From positions 148,356 to 212,355 of the forward strand of contig JAQUSJ010000001.1 in NCBI GenBank assembly GCA_028715175.1: 64,000 bases of DNA, given 5' to 3'. Both the position numbers and the translations under genes were made by a program. How positions within the stretch are numbered: position 1 is the first letter of the stretch; each line of letters opens with the position of its first letter. The DNA comes from Candidatus Daviesbacteria bacterium (GTDB lineage Bacteria; Patescibacteriota; Microgenomatia; Daviesbacterales; UBA10151). Positions 1-60,889 of the stretch are shown here, in pieces. The notes beneath the pieces were generated by a model that did not search any database, was not told the origin of the DNA, and saw nothing but the letters and a program-made list of their open reading frames with translations.

Positions 1-1
1 C

Positions 2-211
2 AGAGGCGGAGAGGGAAGACGGCCTTTTGGAGACAGACCCAGAAGTGGCGGGTTTGATAGACCAAGGTTTGGCGGAGGTGAAAGACGTCCGTTTGGCGGA
101 GAAAGACGAAGCAGTGGATTTAACAGAAGCGGGTCAGGTCGTAGCTCTGGTGGGTTTGATCGTGGAGGCGGTGGCAGGGATAGAGGCGGCCGAGGCGGAT
201 TTAACCGTTAA
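2..211 (+). CDS. 3' end of an upstream gene, entering from the left edge; RGG/FGG-repeat GC-rich tail (RGGEGRRPFGDRPRSGGFDRPRFGGGERRPFGG...GGRGGFNR*), reminiscent of DEAD-box RNA helicase or RNA-binding protein C-termini
   Basis: Translation of frame 2 is read directly and is open from position 2 to TAA at 209-211. RGG/FGG repeats resemble helicase tails, but no catalytic domain is in the window. Confidence 0.35.
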   Translation, partial: RGGEGRRPFGDRPRSGGFDRPRFGGGERRPFGGERRSSGFNRSGSGRSSGGFDRGGGGRDRGGRGGFNR

Positions 212-251
212 CTGTTTCATTAACATTGCCATTACGTTGTAGAATAGAAGC

Positions 252-1289
252 ATGGAAAGTTCTGCCCGAACTATAATTGAAGAATTAAGAATCAAGATTA
301 CTCAAGCTAATCTTCCAAACGAAATCGAAGAAAAGCTGATTAATCTCTTGAAATTCAGCGGTCTGTCAATCGGTGGAGGAATGGAACTTGCAAGTTTGGT
401 TTCTTATATTGATTTTGTAATTTCACTGCCTTTTGGGAAATTATCACAGGATATTTTAGATATAAGCAGGACCAGGCAAATTCTGGACAAAAATCACTTT
501 GGTTTACAGTCTGTTAAAGATCGGGTTTTAGAATATCTTTCGGTTTTGATTTTACATAAAACTTCCGGACAAACAAATGATTTCCATGCTCCGATTTTAG
601 CTCTTATTGGTTTGGTTGGTACAGGCAAAACTTCCCTTGCATATTCCATTGCCGAAGCTTTGGGAAGACCCTTGATGAGGATTCCTTTTGGCGGTTTGGG
701 AGACCCGGCCAGCTTGCGCGGTACATCCAGGATCCGTCCGGATGCTGAACCAGGTCAAATTATGAAAGCTATAAGATCAGCCAAGGTTTCAAATCCTGTT
801 ATAGTTTTGGATGAGATAGACCGGGTGGCGGAGGAGTACAAAGTAGATATTATGGGGGTTTTAGTAGAACTTCTTGATCCGGCGCAAAATCAGGCTTTTT
901 TGGATCATTATTTGGATTTTCCATATGATTTATCACAAGTTTTATTTATTGCGACTGCCAATAATACCGGAAATATTGCCACAGCAGTATTGGATAGACT
1001 TGAACCAATTACGATGCCTGCTTATTCAGATGAGGAAAAACTAACCATCGGACGGAATTACCTTTTACCGAAAGCGATTAAAGAAGCGGGATTGGATGAA
1101 AGGTTGCTTTCCATTGATGAGGCGGTGTGGCCGCAAATACTTCGTCCTCTTGGTTTTGATTCCGGGATTCGGTCGTTGTCCCGTTCTTTGCAGGCAATCT
1201 GCCGGAAAGTTGCCAGGAAAAAAGTAGAAGGGGAAACCGGACCGTTTAGAATCTCTCAGGAAAATTTAGGGGAGTTTTTATCAGGATGA
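252..1289 (+). CDS. Lon-type AAA+ ATPase module only (no N-terminal substrate domain, no S16 peptidase domain)
   Basis: Walker A GLVGTGKTS, Walker B VIVLDEIDR, sensor-1 FIATANN, Arg finger VLDRLEP and sensor-2 GIRSLSR are collinear with the Lon A-domain. The ORF ends where the Lon protease linker would begin. The stop overlaps the RNase J start (ATGA). Confidence 0.7.
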   Translation: MESSARTIIEELRIKITQANLPNEIEEKLINLLKFSGLSIGGGMELASLVSYIDFVISLPFGKLSQDILDISRTRQILDKNHFGLQSVKDRVLEYLSVLILHKTSGQTNDFHAPILALIGLVGTGKTSLAYSIAEALGRPLMRIPFGGLGDPASLRGTSRIRPDAEPGQIMKAIRSAKVSNPVIVLDEIDRVAEEYKVDIMGVLVELLDPAQNQAFLDHYLDFPYDLSQVLFIATANNTGNIATAVLDRLEPITMPAYSDEEKLTIGRNYLLPKAIKEAGLDERLLSIDEAVWPQILRPLGFDSGIRSLSRSLQAICRKVARKKVEGETGPFRISQENLGEFLSG

Positions 1290-2980
1290 AATCATTTAAA
1301 CCAAATTTTTTACCACAGGTAAACAGCAATCAAGCGCTAAGGATAATTCCTCTTGGTGGCGTTGGCGATGTCACCAAAAATATGTATGTTTATGAGTATG
1401 GTGAAGATATTATTATTGTTGATTGCGGAGTGGGTTTTCCGGATGAAGCTATGCCGGGAGTTGATTTGGTTATTCCGGATATTTCATACCTTAGGGATAA
1501 GGTTAATAAAATTAAAGGAATAATTATTACCCACGGGCACGAGGATCATATAGGCAGTTTACCTTATATTTGGCCAGAACTTCAGGCGCCTATTTATACT
1601 CAAAGACTGACAGCCGGTTTTATCAGGGCAAAATTCACCGAACATAATTTGCCAAAAAACAAGATTATCGAAGTTAAAATTGATCAAAAACTGGATTTGG
1701 GAAATTTTAAGATTTCTTTTTATCAAGTATCTCATTCCATACCCGATTCTACAGGGATAGTTATACAAACACCTCAGGGTAAAATTATTCATCAGGCAGA
1801 TTTTAAGATAGACTGGACTCCTGTATCTGGTCAGGTGACAGATGTAGGGAAAATTGCAGAGCTTGGCAGCGAGGGGGTATTAATGCTTCTTATAGATTGT
1901 TTAAGGGTTGAAAAGCCTGGTTTTAACAAATCGGAAAAATCTATTGAAGATACATTTGAAAAAGCTTGCCTTGAAACGTCGGGTAAAGTACTTATTACTA
2001 TGACTTCATCGAACGTTTCAAGAATGCAGCAAGCAATTAATGTAGCAGAAAAATTAGGCAGAAAGGTTGCAGTGGTGGGACGTTCATTTGAAAACAACTT
2101 CCAGGTAGCCAGAGACTTAGGGTATTTATTGGTCCCGCCGGGGATTATAATTGCTCCGGATAGCATTTCCTCCTTCGCCGAAAGTAAAGTTTTGATCCTA
2201 ATTGCCGGAGCGCAAGGACAGTCAGATTCTTCGCTTGCGAGGGCAGCGAACGAGGAGCACAGGCAAGTCAAACTTAAAGAAGGAGACAGCGTGATATTTT
2301 CTGCAGACCCGATTCCGTCAACAGAATCTGCCCAGAATGCATTAATTGATTCGCTGTCAAGATTAGGTTTAAACGTTTATTATTCTGCTGTACTTTCCGA
2401 TCTTCATGTTTCAGGTCATGCAGCACTTGAGGAACTTAAGTTGATGGTTAATTTAATCAAGCCAAAATTTATGTTTCCTATTGGAGGAACTTTTAGGCAC
2501 ATGGAAGCTTTTTCCAAAATGGCGGAGGAGATGGGATATGATAAAAAACAAGTCTTGAATGTTGAAGACGGAGATATTTTAGAGATTAGGGGTGAAGGTG
2601 TTAAACTTGCCGGTAAAGTTGATATACAAAATGTGTATGTGGACGGATTGGGGATTGGTGATATAGGACATGTGGTGTTGCGGGACAGACAGAAGATGAG
2701 CGAAGAAGGAGTGGTTGTGGTAGTGGTATCTGTCGATCAACATACCGGTAAGTCGGTATCTGATGTGGATATTCTCTCAAGAGGATTTGTTTTTGGGGAA
2801 ACAGCCGAAGGCATTCTGAATGAGGCAAAGGTAGTAGTTAAGAATGCTTTGCAAAAACATACTCATAAAACCGCCGATTGGCGTTTTATCAGAAGAATTA
2901 TTGAAGATTCATTAGATAAATTCTTATATCAGACAACAGAAAGGAGACCATTGATTCTATCAGTAGTGGTGGAAGTTTAA
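1286..2980 (+). CDS. rnj: Ribonuclease J (metallo-beta-lactamase/beta-CASP)
   Basis: IIPLGGVGDVTKNMYVYEY, HGHEDHIG metal motif and beta-CASP region; 564 aa. Confidence 0.9.
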   Translation: MKSFKPNFLPQVNSNQALRIIPLGGVGDVTKNMYVYEYGEDIIIVDCGVGFPDEAMPGVDLVIPDISYLRDKVNKIKGIIITHGHEDHIGSLPYIWPELQAPIYTQRLTAGFIRAKFTEHNLPKNKIIEVKIDQKLDLGNFKISFYQVSHSIPDSTGIVIQTPQGKIIHQADFKIDWTPVSGQVTDVGKIAELGSEGVLMLLIDCLRVEKPGFNKSEKSIEDTFEKACLETSGKVLITMTSSNVSRMQQAINVAEKLGRKVAVVGRSFENNFQVARDLGYLLVPPGIIIAPDSISSFAESKVLILIAGAQGQSDSSLARAANEEHRQVKLKEGDSVIFSADPIPSTESAQNALIDSLSRLGLNVYYSAVLSDLHVSGHAALEELKLMVNLIKPKFMFPIGGTFRHMEAFSKMAEEMGYDKKQVLNVEDGDILEIRGEGVKLAGKVDIQNVYVDGLGIGDIGHVVLRDRQKMSEEGVVVVVVSVDQHTGKSVSDVDILSRGFVFGETAEGILNEAKVVVKNALQKHTHKTADWRFIRRIIEDSLDKFLYQTTERRPLILSVVVEV

Positions 2981-3016
2981 CCCATAGTTTTATGGTATAA
3001 TTATTACATTCTTTAT

Positions 3017-5116
3017 ATGGCAAGAAGAAGATCAATCTATAAATTACCCAAGTTTAGGTTAAAACAGAAAACTATAACTGCTGTTGGTACCCTAATAGCT
3101 TTCAGCTTGAGCGTTTTATCAATTGTGGCACTTTTTACCCATTCTCAAACACTAGTATTTTGGAGAGATTTTCTAAATGAGTATTTAGGTGTAGCAAAAA
3201 TTGCCTCCCCAATCATTTTTTTGCTTTCCGGTTTGGTTCTGACAAAAGCCAAATGGAAAATAGCACAGACTAATGTTCTTTTGGGATTTATTTTACTGGT
3301 TTTATCCAGTGTTTCATTTGTTGCGGCGCTAAATTCTGAAAAAGCGGGTTCGATCGGGCAAACTTTGTGGATACAGCTGTCTTCTTTTGTCACTCCGCTT
3401 GGGGCAGCCACTTTGTTTGTGTTAGTTTTCCTGATTGGTTTGGTTGTACTTTTTAATACTTCCCTGCAGCAAATTTTTGCCGTTTTTGTTTATATTTTTA
3501 ATATCTTGCAAAGACTGTTTAAAGCAATTTTTAACAATCAGCGGACATTTGAAGCAAAACATATTCCGATTAAAGTTTCCGGGGTTGACGAACGCCCCGT
3601 CACAAAACCGCTGGCAATGCAGCAAAAAGAGGCCGTTATTGCTGATGTATTGGTACAAAATGTGGCCGGGCAAAGTAAAATCTGGAAATATCCACCTTTA
3701 AATTTATTATCTGATAAAGTGGGATCGGCCGCTGAAAGAGGTAATGTTAAAGATAATGCTAATATTATCGAAAAAACGCTAGATTCATTTGGGATTCAGG
3801 CAAATGTGGCAGAAGTCAACGGCGGGCCGGCAGTAACACAATATGCGCTGCGGATTTCAGCAGGAACCAAAATTTCGAAGATTGCCAATTTACAGCATGA
3901 TATTGCGCTGTCTCTGGCTACGCCTACCGGTACTGTCAGAATTGAGGCGCCTATTCCCGGAAAATCCCTGGTTGGTATTGAGGTACCAAACCGCTCTCTT
4001 GAGATAGTCGGCTTGAAACAAATTTTAGCATCAGAAGAGATGCAGAAGCATAAATCAAGACTGGCTGTTGCACTGGGACGGGATACTTCTTCAAAGCCAA
4101 TGATTGTAGATATAGATAAGATGCCTCACGTTCTGATTGCCGGTACAACCGGTTCAGGTAAATCGGTGTTAATTAATGCAGTTATTGCTTCCTTGCTTTT
4201 CAGGAATTCACCGGACACCTTGAAGATGATTTTGATTGATCCAAAAAGGGTAGAACTGACAAACTACAATGGTATTCCTCATCTTCTAACACCGGTTATT
4301 ACGGAACCGGAAAAGATTTTATCTTCCTTGAAGTGGGCAATGGCCGAAATGGATAGACGCTATAAATTATTCCAGTCAGTCGGAGTGCGTAATATCACGG
4401 GTTATAATGAAATGTCCGGTTTTCAGGCCCTGCCGTATATTGTCATTATTGTTGACGAGTTGGCCGATCTTATGATGTTTGCGCCGGTTGAGATTGAGGA
4501 TGCAATTACCAGGATTGCCCAACTAGCTAGGGCAACAGGAATTCATCTGGTGGTGGCAACCCAGCGGCCTTCTGTTGACGTTATTACAGGTTTAATCAAA
4601 GCCAATATCCCCTGCCGGATTGCATTTAACGTATCTTCCATGATTGACTCCCGGGTTATTTTAGACGGACCCGGGGCGGAGAAATTGCTGGGACGGGGAG
4701 ATATGTTGTTTTTGCCTCCGGATGCTTCAAAACCGATTCGTATTCAAGGAGTGTTTGTTCAGGATAATGAGATCGAGAGTTTGATTAAATATCTTAAGAA
4801 TACCGGCATTGCGCCGGAATATACTACAGAGGTAACGGAGATGCCGCTGGGCAGGTGGGGCGGAAGAAATGGTAATGGAGGCGAAAAAGACCAGTTATTT
4901 GAGGAGGCAGTTAAAACTATTTGCCAATATGATCGGGCTTCGGCATCGCTGCTTCAAAGAAGGCTTAAGGTCGGTTATGCCAGAGCTGCCAGGATTTTAG
5001 ATGAGCTGGAGGCAGCAGGGATTGTTGGCCCGGGTGAAGGTTCAAAGCCCAGGGATGTGCTGGTCCGTAATGCTGAGGAATATTTTGCAGCTCAACAAAG
5101 TGCGAGCGGAAATTAA
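3017..5116 (+). CDS. ftsK: DNA translocase FtsK/SpoIIIE
   Basis: N-terminal TM helices, Walker A AGTTGSGKS, motor domain, C-terminal gamma winged helix (LLQRRLKVGYARAARILDELE). Confidence 0.9.
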   Translation: MARRRSIYKLPKFRLKQKTITAVGTLIAFSLSVLSIVALFTHSQTLVFWRDFLNEYLGVAKIASPIIFLLSGLVLTKAKWKIAQTNVLLGFILLVLSSVSFVAALNSEKAGSIGQTLWIQLSSFVTPLGAATLFVLVFLIGLVVLFNTSLQQIFAVFVYIFNILQRLFKAIFNNQRTFEAKHIPIKVSGVDERPVTKPLAMQQKEAVIADVLVQNVAGQSKIWKYPPLNLLSDKVGSAAERGNVKDNANIIEKTLDSFGIQANVAEVNGGPAVTQYALRISAGTKISKIANLQHDIALSLATPTGTVRIEAPIPGKSLVGIEVPNRSLEIVGLKQILASEEMQKHKSRLAVALGRDTSSKPMIVDIDKMPHVLIAGTTGSGKSVLINAVIASLLFRNSPDTLKMILIDPKRVELTNYNGIPHLLTPVITEPEKILSSLKWAMAEMDRRYKLFQSVGVRNITGYNEMSGFQALPYIVIIVDELADLMMFAPVEIEDAITRIAQLARATGIHLVVATQRPSVDVITGLIKANIPCRIAFNVSSMIDSRVILDGPGAEKLLGRGDMLFLPPDASKPIRIQGVFVQDNEIESLIKYLKNTGIAPEYTTEVTEMPLGRWGGRNGNGGEKDQLFEEAVKTICQYDRASASLLQRRLKVGYARAARILDELEAAGIVGPGEGSKPRDVLVRNAEEYFAAQQSASGN

Positions 5117-5288
5117 ATTCAGTATTTAAAAATCAATTTATTCACGATCGTGAACATTTTGAATCCTTAACCATTAACTTCCTTAACTATTAACTTTAGA
5201 ATACTGAGGTGTAACTACAATTTCACCCCCGAGGTGGAAGCATGGAAGCAGGAATAATGGCAGATTATGAATTTGGTACAATTGAGCA

Positions 5289-5876
5289 ATGAAATCTCAA
5301 AATCTAACCTTCAAAGAAACAGATCAGATTATAAAACTTTTAAAATCTGGCAAAGTTGGCGTGATGCCGACGGATACTATTTATGGAATTGTCGGGTTGG
5401 CGCTTAACCCAAAAACTGTTGAGGAAATTTATTCTTTGCGGAAGAGAACGACCGATAAGCCAATGATCATATTGATTTCCTCGATAGAAGATTTGAGAAA
5501 ATTTGATATAAAGATCACAAAAGCGCAAACTGATTTTTTAAAAAAGATTTGGCCCAATCCGGTCAGTGTGATTTTGCCATGCCTCCAAGATAAATTTTCT
5601 TATCTTCATAGAGATAAAAAGAGTTTGGCATTTAGGATACCAAAAAACGAAATACTACAGGGAATTTTAAAAAAAGTCGGTCCTTTAGTTGCACCTAGTA
5701 CAAACTTTGAAGATAGTAAACCAGCCGAAACTATTCATAAGGCAAAACAATATTTTGGGGATAAGGTATCTTTTTATGTAGACGGAGGAAAATTAAAGTC
5801 TAAACCTTCGACAATCGTTAGACTATACAAGGATGGCACGCGGATAGTTTTAAGAGAAGGTACTTACAGGGTATAA
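5289..5876 (+). CDS. tsaC: L-threonylcarbamoyladenylate synthase TsaC/YrdC family
   Basis: PTDTIYGIVG...KPMIILI YrdC/Sua5 signature. Confidence 0.8.
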   Translation: MKSQNLTFKETDQIIKLLKSGKVGVMPTDTIYGIVGLALNPKTVEEIYSLRKRTTDKPMIILISSIEDLRKFDIKITKAQTDFLKKIWPNPVSVILPCLQDKFSYLHRDKKSLAFRIPKNEILQGILKKVGPLVAPSTNFEDSKPAETIHKAKQYFGDKVSFYVDGGKLKSKPSTIVRLYKDGTRIVLREGTYRV

Positions 5877-59029: not shown

Positions 59030-59286
59030 ACGCCTAGGAAGAAGGATGATCGGTCGCCTTAGGCGACAGGAAAGTCCAGACAGCATAAAGCAGGGTGGTC
59101 CGATGTAAATCGGACACGGGTAACCGCTAGTTAGAGCAACAGTGACGAACCGAGGTCATGCTCGGGTGAAACGTGGCAATCCTCCCCGCTGCAATCCTAG
59201 AACCGACAGAGTTGCTTGCTCAATTGTTGAAATCAGGAGCATTAGATAAATGATCGTCTAAAAACAGAATCTGGCTTACTAGCTTC
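59030..59286 (+). ncRNA. rnpB: RNase P RNA (compact bacterial type)
   Basis: P1 gccuaggaag / cuuccuaggc (59032-59041 / 59273-59282). P4 strands GGAAAGUCCAGAC and ACAGAAUCUGGCUUA match the universal P4 consensus. AGCAGGGUGG and extended -10 tgTATAAT lie just upstream. Confidence 0.7.
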
Positions 59287-59329
59287 CTAGGCATTTTTCT
59301 TCTATTTTTCTCATTGTATACTTATATAA

Positions 59330-60889
59330 ATGCTTGCAAAAATAATCTCTGCTACGAATATTGGATTGGATGCAAATTTAGTCATTTGCGAAGTAGATAT
59401 TTCTCAACAAGGATTGCCTAGTTTTACGATAGTAGGACTTGGCGATAGGGCGGTAGAAGAGAGTAAAGAAAGGGTGCGAGCAGCATTTAGAAATTCTGGT
59501 GCAGATTTTCCTCTTCATAGAATTACTGTCAATTTAGCTCCGGCTGACATGCCAAAAGAAGGACCTGCTTATGATTTGCCTATTGCTTTAGGATTGCTTT
59601 TGGCATCAGGCCAAATAGCTAACACGGAAAAATTTGATTTTGCCAAAACTTTAATCGTAGGAGAACTGTCATTAGATGGAAATTTACGAAAAATCAACGG
59701 GGTGCTCCCTTTGGCAATACTAGCAAAAGAGCAAGGGATTAAACATATTGTTGTGCCGGAGAGGAATGGCCCGGAGGCAGCAATTATCGAAGATTTGAAA
59801 GTATTAGCCCCCAATTCGCTGCAACAGCTGATGAGGTTTTTACTGGGACAAGAAGATTTGAGGATCGTCCGAAAACCTGCTTTAAATCCGGAAGTAAATT
59901 TAACTTATGAATATGATTTTTTAGATATAAAAGGACAAGAGCAGGCAAAGAGGGCTTTGGAAATTGCTGCAGCAGGAGGACACAACGTTTTATTGAAAGG
60001 ACCTCCCGGAGCAGGAAAAACTATGCTGGCCCGCAGTTTTCCATCGATCTTGCCGCCGTTAACTTTTGATGAAGCAATAGAAGTAACAAAAATTTATTCT
60101 GTAGCAGGGCTTTTAAATACAAATAATTCGCTTATAACTATTCGGCCTTTTCGCTGTCCTCATCATAGCGCATCATATGTTGGATTGCTTGGAGGAGGCA
60201 ACATGATACGTCCAGGTGAAATCTCGCTTTCACACAGAGGTGTTTTGTTTCTGGATGAAGTGGCAGAATTTCCCCGTCAGAGTTTGGAAAGTTTACGGCA
60301 ACCTTTAGAAGATCATTGTATTACAATTTCCAGAGCATCAGGATCTATAAAACTTCCCGCACAATTTATTTTATTTGCTGCCCAAAATCCCTGTCCTTGC
60401 GGTTTTTTAGGTGATAAAAAAAGAGTTTGTGCATGTATGCCCGGGCAAATCGCTAAGTATAAACGTAGAATTTCCGGACCTTTCTTAGATAGAATTGATA
60501 TTTATCTGGAAGTACCTGCGGTTGAAGTTGAGAAATTATCATCGGATTTAAAGGTTGAAAGTTCCAGGGTAATTAGAAACAGGGTCGAAGCGGCAAGAAA
60601 GATTCAACAGGAAAGATTCCAACCAAAGGTTGGCCGTTCTCTGGACGGTAAAGTTAAGATTCTTACTAATTCGGAAATGAATAATAATGATATTAAAGCA
60701 TATTGTGTTTTAACCCGGGAAGGTTTGGAACTATTGAAAATGGCTATCTCTTCGCTTAATCTATCTGCCCGTGGTTATCATAGGGTTCTTAAACTCGGAA
60801 GGACAATTGCAGATTTGGCAGGGGTAGAAAATATTCAAGCTGAACACATAGCTGAAGCTTTGCAATACCGTTCAAGGGATGATCTTTAA
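59330..60889 (+). CDS. comM: YifB/ComM family Mg-chelatase-like AAA+ ATPase
   Basis: N-terminal Lon-like/ChlI domains, Walker A GPPGAGKT, C-terminal helical domain; 519 aa. Confidence 0.85.
   Translation: MLAKIISATNIGLDANLVICEVDISQQGLPSFTIVGLGDRAVEESKERVRAAFRNSGADFPLHRITVNLAPADMPKEGPAYDLPIALGLLLASGQIANTEKFDFAKTLIVGELSLDGNLRKINGVLPLAILAKEQGIKHIVVPERNGPEAAIIEDLKVLAPNSLQQLMRFLLGQEDLRIVRKPALNPEVNLTYEYDFLDIKGQEQAKRALEIAAAGGHNVLLKGPPGAGKTMLARSFPSILPPLTFDEAIEVTKIYSVAGLLNTNNSLITIRPFRCPHHSASYVGLLGGGNMIRPGEISLSHRGVLFLDEVAEFPRQSLESLRQPLEDHCITISRASGSIKLPAQFILFAAQNPCPCGFLGDKKRVCACMPGQIAKYKRRISGPFLDRIDIYLEVPAVEVEKLSSDLKVESSRVIRNRVEAARKIQQERFQPKVGRSLDGKVKILTNSEMNNNDIKAYCVLTREGLELLKMAISSLNLSARGYHRVLKLGRTIADLAGVENIQAEHIAEALQYRSRDDL

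Follow-up and report, generated by a model that had tools for sequence, protein, structure and literature searches.

A standalone LonA-type AAA+ ATPase module encoded beside RNase J, apparently a member of an undescribed family in Patescibacteria

Among single-chain AAA+ proteases Lon is the textbook case, and to our knowledge its ATPase has been studied by itself only as a laboratory fragment. Yeast mitochondrial ClpX works without ClpP as a non-degradative AAA+ motor; ClpX and ClpP, however, are always distinct polypeptides, whereas in Lon motor and protease normally share one chain. Among AAA-protease lineages that gave up one activity and were repurposed, the FtsHi proteins, which belong to the chloroplast import motor and are proteolytically inactive homologues of FtsH, have kept a dead protease domain, and LonC combines a degenerate ATPase with a retained protease. 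ATP-dependent remodellers are also found in degradosomes, including RNase J-RhpA of Helicobacter pylori and RNase E-RhlB-PNPase of E. coli; the NTPases known from such complexes are helicases of the DEAD-box type (RecA-fold SF2), and we know of no AAA+ or Lon-type degradosome subunit.

We analyzed a gene, here called lon', near the start of a 64-kb stretch of Daviesbacteria DNA (the window). Its product is homologous to the AAA+ module of the LonA proteases of E. coli, Y. pestis and Meiothermus taiwanensis (MEROPS S16; 36–44% identity), with which it shares the three-helix bundle, the Lon-specific lid, Walker A and B, sensor-1, the arginine finger and sensor-2, and from which it differs in having neither the LON N-terminal domain nor the S16 Ser-Lys peptidase. 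Like ClpX, it would represent a protease-associated AAA+ motor kept alone for non-degradative remodelling, though unlike ClpX it required a truncation of the gene, because Lon is normally a single-chain fusion. Unlike in FtsHi and LonC, the protease domain is gone altogether while the ATPase motifs have been preserved. As in the degradosomes, an NTPase is encoded with PNPase and/or RNase J, the likeness here being one of gene order alone. The genes and junctions at the locus are as follows.

2 to 209, plus strand: 3' end of pnp (polynucleotide phosphorylase), last 69 codons, cut by the window start.
210 to 251, no strand: spacer of 42 nt between pnp and lon', with no terminator-like or promoter-like site reported.
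252 to 1289, plus strand: lon', ATG start, 345 aa, standalone LonA-type AAA+ module.
1286 to 1289, plus strand: ATGA overlap of the rnj start (ATG, 1286–1288) and the lon' stop (TGA, 1287–1289), read from the sequence.
1286 to 2980, plus strand: rnj, RNase J, 564 aa; matches TIGR00649 at 559 bits (cutoff 400).
3017 to 5116, plus strand: ftsK, 699 aa, with FtsK_alpha, FtsK_SpoIIIE and FtsK_gamma in Pfam.

An initial annotation had read the lon' product as a standalone Lon-type AAA+ module lacking N-domain and peptidase, and profile and structural comparisons agree with that assignment. Pfam identifies AAA (E 5e-17) and Lon_lid (E 2e-9; residues 277–329) in the protein and finds neither Lon_C (PF05362, the S16 Ser-Lys peptidase) nor a LON N-domain. 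The match to TIGR00763 (endopeptidase La) is limited to model positions 251–567 of 795 and reaches 312.7 bits, about half of the 608.05-bit cutoff for full-length LonA, and PRK10787 gives 232 bits, with its cutoff at 891. Residues 9–343 align to LonA structures in the PDB (E 1e-65 to 1e-72), the counterpart in E. coli Lon being residues 252–579. The protein begins at approximately Lon residue 246–251, without the LON N-terminal domain and the long coiled-coil helix, and its C-terminus lies 2–3 residues past the lid domain. Because the alignment to the LonA structures stops there, the C-terminus falls at the start of the peptidase linker, as had been claimed from the open reading frame, and the family alignment contains no conserved C-terminal docking motif after the lid.

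The AlphaFold model of the lon' product (pLDDT 91.4) is composed of a three-helix bundle, an alpha/beta ATPase domain and a Lon lid, and its best PDB structural matches in Foldseek are LonA AAA+ modules (TM 0.81–0.91); the combination of three-helix bundle and Lon lid that marks a Lon-type AAA+ module is seen in Pfam, in the PDB matches and in Foldseek. Its boundaries are nearly identical to those of PDB 6n2i, an engineered E. coli LonA AAA+ fragment (344-residue construct), with residues 10–343 aligning to residues 12–339 of the 6n2i chain (TM 0.88 query-normalised, 0.89 target-normalised). The lon' product is the natural counterpart of this laboratory truncation, which was cut from the full protease and carries canonical pore loops, whereas lon' encodes a free-standing product that evolved under selection. 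The closest PDB and HMM matches are all LonA, and the features of LonB and LonC are absent: there is no peptidase, the alignment with LonA shows no inserted segment such as the membrane anchor that LonB has in its AAA+ domain, and the ATPase motifs have not degenerated as in LonC. PADLOC defence-system models gave only weak generic P-loop matches to the protein (IetA and TRIP13; E ~1e-4, 18–20 bits). The parts of the protein that bear on nucleotide hydrolysis and on the central channel map to the window as follows.

252 to 566, plus strand: N-terminal helical region, residues 1–105, equivalent to the LonA NTD three-helix bundle and aligning to Lon residues ~246–350.
609 to 632, plus strand: Walker A GLVGTGKT, residues 120–127.
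720 to 755, plus strand: remodelled pore loop 1, GTSRIRPDAEPG, residues 157–168.
798 to 815, plus strand: Walker B VIVLDE, residues 183–188.
822 to 860, plus strand: remodelled pore loop 2 region, RVAEEYKVDIMGV, residues 191–203.
960 to 962, plus strand: sensor-1 Asn (N237).
996 to 998, plus strand: arginine finger (R249).
1170 to 1172, plus strand: sensor-2 Arg (R307), in the lid domain.

The motifs were compared between 207 standalone family members and 72 full-length LonA sequences. Every ATPase signature of the Lon A-domain that had been noted in the window's protein is present and invariant in 207/207 members, including G120, G123, G125, K126 and T127 of Walker A, D187 and E188 of Walker B, N237, R249 and R307, so that the HCLR-clade set (Walker A/B, sensor-1, trans arginine finger, sensor-2) is complete throughout; the start of Walker A reads GL[QVA]G in the standalone family and GPPG in LonA. 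As an arginine finger R249 works in trans, which points to an ATPase that forms oligomers, and the conservation of these motifs predicts a catalytically competent oligomeric AAA+ enzyme.

The comparison with LonA shows the predicted channel-lining loops to have been rebuilt in the standalone family. Pore loop 1 of LonA reads GHRRTY[VI]GA[ML]PG, with the tyrosine in 71/72 sequences, and in Y. pestis Lon the Y398/I399 pair and R395/R396 serve substrate translocation (PMC7239648). In the lon' loop the Tyr/Ile pincer and one of the two tandem flanking arginines are lost: R162 and P163 occupy the positions of the pair in the window's protein, and position 162 in the family is variously S (49), F (23), N (22), Y (19), H (16), L (15) and others (n=207). 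Acidic residues are newly conserved at D/E164 (176/207) and E166 (202/207), turning the G-A-M-P-G of LonA into a D-A-E-P-G motif. Pore loop 2 changes from [FYW]-R-G-D-P-[AS] in LonA to x-[RL]-x-D-[IV]-M, with loss of the glycine (68/72 LonA) and the proline (70/72 LonA), and hence of R-G-D-P. In ~40% of members one of the two positions at the centre of the pore loop is still aromatic (Y161 in 44/207; F/Y162 in 42/207), which suggests that polypeptide threading may survive in part of the family. In the N-terminal region, for which the AlphaFold model places helices at residues 2–18, 23–39, 43–58, 71–81 and 86–105, Y52 is invariant in the family alignment and F55 replaces the tryptophan of the Y294/W297 pair, which in Y. 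pestis Lon touches pore loop 1 (PMC7239648).

More than 200 orthologues of 340–440 aa share the end point of the lon' product. They occur in Daviesbacteria and other Microgenomatia (Levy-, Shapiro-, Woese-, Ames-, Gottesman- and Roizmanbacteria), in WWE3 and in Dojkabacteria, with one further member bearing a Nomurabacteria source label. The truncated architecture was found in 80/80 species-level genomes sampled, all independent assemblies; the stop lies 0–3 codons past the end of homology in 79/80 loci and 9 codons past it in one, and 79 species have uninterrupted lon' ORFs of 340–438 aa. An apparently disrupted copy in locus L080 proved to be a scaffold gap of 11 N. In an unbootstrapped neighbour-joining tree, for which LonA was sampled as best search matches only, 70 standalone sequences group as a single clade, split from 72 full-length LonA by a branch of 0.28. 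The dN/dS of lon' is 0.087, compared with 0.057 for rnj and 0.091 for ftsK, and this value indicates that lon' is under purifying selection. Searches of open-access full texts found no description of a protease-less Lon ATPase, in Patescibacteria or elsewhere, and the window's gene is apparently an intact, strongly conserved member of an undescribed family across ultra-small Patescibacteria. In current annotation, members of the family carry the label "AAA family ATPase" or the incorrect one "ATP-dependent Lon protease".

Searches for the missing domains were made around lon' in the window and in relatives. No S16 peptidase remnant was found near lon' in any frame by tblastn with two Lon peptidase domains, consistent with the claim that no frameshifted peptidase remnant or in-frame S16 domain lies downstream, and tblastn with two Lon N-domains found none in the 64-kb window or in 88 loci. 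In the flanks of lon', covered to ±6 kb in 80 genomes and to ±8–10 kb in 5 further loci, neither an S16 peptidase nor a LON N-domain was matched. The sole Lon_C-like match in the window, at 59375–59878, is the ChlI N-domain of ComM/YifB, encoded by a ComM gene at 59330–60889, and not a partner peptidase. A peptidase-sized ORF of ~208 aa that at least 22 loci carry between lon' and rnj encodes a family-4 uracil-DNA glycosylase (UDG; PF03167, E 8e-34) and not a Lon peptidase.

The genomic surroundings of lon' are housekeeping in character. The upstream gene ends in a basic, RGG/FGG-rich tail (frame 2), which finishes with GGFDRGGGGRDRGGRGGFNR and a TAA stop at 207–209. The tail had been noticed before and tentatively ascribed to a DEAD-box helicase; the tail itself stands, and the ascription does not, as the same tail ends a 787-aa PNPase (two RNase_PH domains, KH and S1) directly upstream of lon' in L001 and L003. 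A basic disordered PNPase tail is present in almost all genomes of the family sampled. Downstream, the RNase J is intact and begins at once, as had been claimed, with Lactamase_B, RNase_J_b_CASP, RMMBL and RNase_J_C in Pfam. Among loci with enough flank, rnj lies downstream of lon' on the same strand in 56/66, and pnp lies upstream in 47/67, the linkage being kept across lineages with proteins only 47–55% identical, and also in Dojkabacteria-level relatives. Counts of promoter-like and terminator-like sites across 1–5400 are no higher than in shuffled sequence and so do not bear on operon structure.

The initial annotation had also proposed translational coupling of lon' to RNase J. The ATGA overlap is real in the window, yet it is not a general feature, as a 4-nt overlap occurs in only 2/63 other species (L006, ATGA; L008, GTGA) and genes are inserted between lon' and rnj in 29/63, most often the family-4 UDG. 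The order rpsO-pnp-lon'-(udg)-rnj-ftsK is probably ancestral, and the overlap appears to be recent, having arisen in a Daviesbacteria sub-lineage after loss of the intervening udg. The synteny of lon' and rnj across relatives, which had been put forward as a check, is found as linkage, but the unrelated control pair rnj-ftsK is adjacent in 42/53 loci and equally conserved, so that synteny cannot carry the functional claim attached to it; position between two RNA-degrading enzymes does not by itself show joint function. In nine species lon' adjoins groES-groEL instead, and no pnp or rnj gene lies within 6 kb of it. No CIRCE/HrcA operator (≤4 mismatches) was found between groES and lon', or upstream of lon' in the window.

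Taken from protein and gene comparisons, the reading that we consider probable is that lon' belongs to a functional, vertically inherited Patescibacteria family that derives from LonA by a single ancient loss of the N-domain and the S16 peptidase and that would act as a protease-independent remodeller. Motif conservation predicts that the lon' product would assemble as a Lon-like hexamer and hydrolyse ATP. It would act without proteolysis, in binding and remodelling or as a chaperone-type ATPase, and would not be a processive threader that feeds a degradation chamber. Candidate substrates are basic disordered proteins, for example the Arg/Gly-rich PNPase tail, for which the only pointers are the acidity of the loops and the genes nearby. 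The groES-groEL neighbourhood in nine species fits a role in protein folding.

That lon' is instead a decaying pseudogene, or that its peptidase is masked by a frameshift introduced in assembly, had already been doubted, and is refuted to the point of having practically no probability: apart from its short length relative to the 780–800 aa of LonA nothing speaks for it, and the same architecture recurs in the independent assemblies of 80 species with invariant catalytic residues and the low dN/dS, next to an intact RNase J and with no peptidase-like sequence in any frame. A split Lon, in which this ATPase reassembles in trans with an S16 peptidase from another locus, and possibly with a LON N-domain protein likewise encoded apart, would account for a product that ends exactly at a domain boundary and for its fully conserved ATPase machinery. 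We know of no precedent for such a trans-assembled Lon, and we judge it very unlikely, as the flanks searched and the whole window contain neither domain and the lid is followed by no conserved docking motif; nor would a chamber-feeding motor be expected to lose the translocating Tyr/Ile pincer (role of the pair, PMC7239648). A DNA-directed ATPase, reusing Lon-like DNA binding in replication, repair or segregation, is highly improbable. The UDG directly downstream in many lineages and ftsK in the same block would suit it, and 6n2i was named "DNA-binding ATP-dependent protease La" by its depositors; some LonA proteins do bind DNA. The caveat on synteny applies here as well, however, the channel loops are more acidic than in LonA, and Pfam and profile scans find no nucleic-acid-binding domain in the lon' product.

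The remaining alternative is that the protein is a dedicated subunit of an RNA-degradation complex, co-expressed with PNPase and RNase J, which would dock, for example by its acidic channel loops on the Arg/Gly-rich PNPase tail, and remodel nucleases or RNP substrates, a role that DEAD-box helicases fill elsewhere. Consistent with this are the long-preserved linkage to pnp and rnj, the short gap to pnp (42 nt) and 4-nt overlap with rnj in the window, with no terminator-like site between the three genes, the near-universal basic PNPase tail alongside the acidic residues gained in the channel loops, and the report that CPR genomes preserve three ribonuclease genes, rnj and pnp along with rnc (PMC12641178). 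Weighing against it, unrelated genes are equally conserved in the block, both rnj-ftsK and the UDG between lon' and rnj, the groES-groEL loci have neither nuclease gene nearby, the overlap is rare, and the acidic loops speak against direct RNA threading. We regard this alternative as unlikely, and as distinctly unlikely its more specific form, in which lon' would be the ATP-driven subunit of a minimal PNPase/RNase J decay machine whose acidified, non-aromatic channel grips the PNPase tail or basic RNA-binding proteins. The persistent place between PNPase and RNase J could nevertheless reflect a specific role in RNA decay, and a dedicated role of this kind is possible; the RNA/protein-remodelling module of the initial annotation is best taken as a hypothesis. 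A protease-independent hexameric remodelling ATPase is, from the motifs and loops described above, the most likely function of the lon' product.

The family represents a Lon ATPase that has been kept alone for a very long time in a large bacterial radiation, with its hydrolysis machinery conserved and its substrate-gripping loops rewritten, and it offers a natural experiment in what a Lon motor does when it is not degrading. Its members are small (~340 aa), well-predicted targets for the study of protease-independent Lon functions, including chaperone activity, assembly and binding of basic disordered tails. If they are counted as Lon, these reduced genomes are credited with more proteolytic capacity than they have. 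RNase J, RNase III and PNPase are the only ribonucleases reported to be preserved in such organisms (PMC12641178), and a link of lon' to RNA decay, if true, would change the picture of RNA turnover in them; if the degradosome reading held, a bacterial degradosome would for the first time be seen to use an AAA+ remodeller in place of a DEAD-box one.

The product of lon′ has Lon-type ATPase architecture, and the initial annotation was correct in describing it as a standalone AAA+ module that has neither N-domain nor peptidase. The features concerned are as follows.

2-209, frame 2: RGG/FGG tail of the upstream gene, terminating at TAA
252-1289, + strand: lon′ ORF, 345 aa, starting at the first ATG past a stop
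Residues 117-252 of the lon′ product: AAA domain (Pfam)
Residues 277-329 of the lon′ product: Lon-specific lid (Pfam)
ATG at 1286-1288, overlapping the lon′ TGA at 1287-1289: rnj, complete RNase J of 564 aa (TIGR00649, 559 bits)

Pfam detects neither the Lon_C peptidase nor the LON N-domain in the product, and TIGR00763 (NCBIfam endopeptidase La) covers it at model positions 251-567 of 795 only, scoring 312.7 bits, under the cutoff of 608. The best solved-structure matches are all LonA (E 1e-65 to 1e-72), and the alignment pairs residues 9-343 with E. coli Lon 252-579. From the limits of these matches, the product therefore begins at the three-helix bundle preceding the ATPase and ends 2-3 residues past the lid, where the peptidase linker would start, as had been claimed. 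The AlphaFold model is confident (pLDDT 91.4, pTM 0.87; input alignment of 78 sequences) and superposes on LonA AAA+ modules with TM 0.81-0.91; the engineered E. coli AAA+ fragment 6n2i has almost the same extent (TM 0.88/0.89).

Homologues 74-96% identical to the lon′ product are all 336-365 aa long, and their names point to Candidatus Daviesbacteria (Patescibacteria/CPR) as the source of the window. A scan using one genome per species gave 80 loci in Daviesbacteria, Levy-, Shapiro-, Woese-, Ames-, Gottesman- and Roizmanbacteria and WWE3, and a search seeded with a member at 38% identity added Dojkabacteria and further Patescibacteria. The ORF is 340-438 aa long at all 80 loci; at 79 of these the stop comes 0-3 codons after homology ends, and at the remaining one it comes 9 codons after. 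The single apparently broken copy reflects a run of N and no real disruption. In a neighbour-joining tree without bootstrap, with LonA sampled as best search matches only, the 70 standalone sequences group together as a single clade, and a branch of 0.28 divides them from the 72 full-length LonA. Compared with a 96%-identical relative, lon′ has a dN/dS of 0.087, close to the values for rnj (0.057) and ftsK (0.091). The shared truncation, single clade and low dN/dS uphold the view that lon′ is neither a decayed gene nor an artefact.

Disordered Q/P-rich N-termini are added in some members, as in the search matches P0141, P0136, P0142 and P0154, where Gln/Pro-rich low-complexity extensions of 100-320 residues precede the three-helix bundle. 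In the representative search, summed scores were highest for giants of about 900-3865 aa (P0121-P0135 and P0146), whose 2-6 separate stretches of Lon-like AAA+ sequence are apparently Lon-type ATPase modules in tandem. Four further matches (P0168, P0195, P0237 and P0250; 575-667 aa) align to the query at roughly residues 242-620 and stop shortly past the AAA+ module; these may be N-domain Lon without peptidase, or contig-end fragments. Many contigs among loci L007-L079 have typical Patescibacteria gene order and carry the title "uncultured Gammaproteobacteria" or "Pseudomonadales"; that of L069, with the same kind of order, carries "Candidatus Methanoperedens". As taxon labels these seem to be placeholders or mistakes.

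The ATPase signatures attributed to the ORF are all present and are invariant across 207 family members: Walker A (G/G/G/K/T), Walker B (D-E), the sensor-1 Asn, the Arg finger and the sensor-2 Arg. Conservation of the trans-acting Arg finger implies that the family probably acts as an oligomeric, active ATPase. The alignments show the channel-lining loops to be rebuilt. Pore loop 1 of LonA reads G-H-R-R-T-Y-[VI]-G-A-[ML]-P-G, with Tyr in 71 of 72 sequences, and that of the family G-x-[SP]-[RK]-x-x-[P/L/V]-[DE]-[AS]-E-P-G, with S, F, N, Y, H, L or others at the Tyr position and new conserved acidic residues at positions 164 (176/207) and 166 (202/207); the R-G-D-P motif of pore loop 2 is lost. 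In Y. pestis Lon, a Y398/I399 pincer grips the substrate and R395/R396 buttress the loop (PMC7239648). The three-helix bundle contacts pore loop 1 through a Tyr/Trp pair, of which the Tyr is kept (Y52) and the Trp is kept in most members, being F55 in the lon′ product of the window. Invariant ATPase residues together with remodelled loops show that the motor is kept and that the way the channel meets its substrate is changed. The shift from a basic aromatic to an acidic pore loop argues against RNA threading and would be compatible with binding of basic polypeptides.

The upstream gene had been taken for a possible DEAD-box helicase, wrongly: in the closest relatives (orthologues 96% and 81% identical) the gene with this tail encodes a 787-788-aa polynucleotide phosphorylase with two RNase_PH domains, KH and S1, and rpsO lies upstream of pnp. 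Nearly every related genome examined has a basic, Arg/Gly-rich tail on its PNPase. The tail is long, disordered and C-terminal, with RGG/FGG repeats in Daviesbacteria; basic tails measure 20-100 aa in nearly all 53 related PNPases (loci L003-L088), and a short motif within the tail, HPL[AS]QQFRRER, is common to several lineages. Elsewhere in the window, a class A RNase P RNA (59034-59294; 111 bits) directly precedes a gene for a 519-aa ComM/YifB-type protein (59330-60889) with a ChlI Lon_C-like N-domain, a Mg_chelatase AAA+ domain and a C-terminal domain. Apart from this N-domain, which is no S16 protease, nothing in the window resembles a Lon peptidase.

Of the 66 loci among the 80 species that have 2 kb of flank or more, 56 carry rnj downstream of lon′ on the same strand; pnp lies upstream at 47 of 67. 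The proposed lon′-rnj synteny thus stands as a neighbourhood; as direct coupling it is restricted, since other genes part the two at 29 of 63 loci and the 4-nt overlap recurs beyond the window only at L006 and L008, with gaps of 83-113 nt in other Daviesbacteria. The deep relatives' order is dnaJ-nusA-infB-x-rpsO-pnp-lon′-udg-(..)-rnj-ftsK. Among the intervening genes is a family-4 uracil-DNA glycosylase (22 of 29 loci); this udg stands between the two genes in 22 species or more (within L019-L088; e.g. L077, 7035-7661) and also in relatives at the Dojkabacteria level. Since the 64-kb window has no copy anywhere, the gene appears to have been lost or relocated in Daviesbacteria, which brought lon′ and rnj side by side.

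The pnp-lon′-rnj neighbourhood is a block of housekeeping genes conserved from ancient times, and its order permits, short of demonstrating, a functional link between lon′ and RNA decay. A dedicated role for lon′ together with PNPase and RNase J would be the more striking possibility and is a minority reading. The functionally unrelated pair rnj-ftsK (42/53) is no less conserved than lon′-rnj, and rpsO-pnp adjacency holds at 43 of 43 loci. Nine species have a second arrangement, with lon′ divergent from groES-groEL (about 3700-7600 in L040, L042, L045, L050, L060, L062, L071, L083 and L084), where neither pnp nor rnj lies within 6 kb of lon′; a convergent PF04308 RNase H-like gene follows lon′ in four of the nine, and no CIRCE operator was detected in the shared groES/lon′ spacer. 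The missing peptidase could also be read as a split Lon, with lon′ as the ATPase and the peptidase encoded elsewhere in the genome, which we consider improbable. Searches with Lon peptidase and N-domain queries (tblastn) gave no match near lon′ in any frame, in agreement, together with the intact rnj, with the earlier statement that no frameshifted remnant exists, and no member of the family adds a peptidase domain.

None of the families curated in NCBIfam or Pfam covers lon′, and its relatives are entered in databases as "AAA family ATPase" or, which is misleading, as "ATP-dependent Lon protease". Full-text searches of open-access papers gave no description of a protease-less Lon ATPase family, and the family is apparently new to description. 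Lon′ is a bona fide member of this widespread family, whose AAA+ ATPases derive from LonA, have neither protease nor N-domain, and show remodelled channel loops; the best-supported mechanism would be remodelling or chaperone activity of a hexameric ATPase that works without proteolysis.
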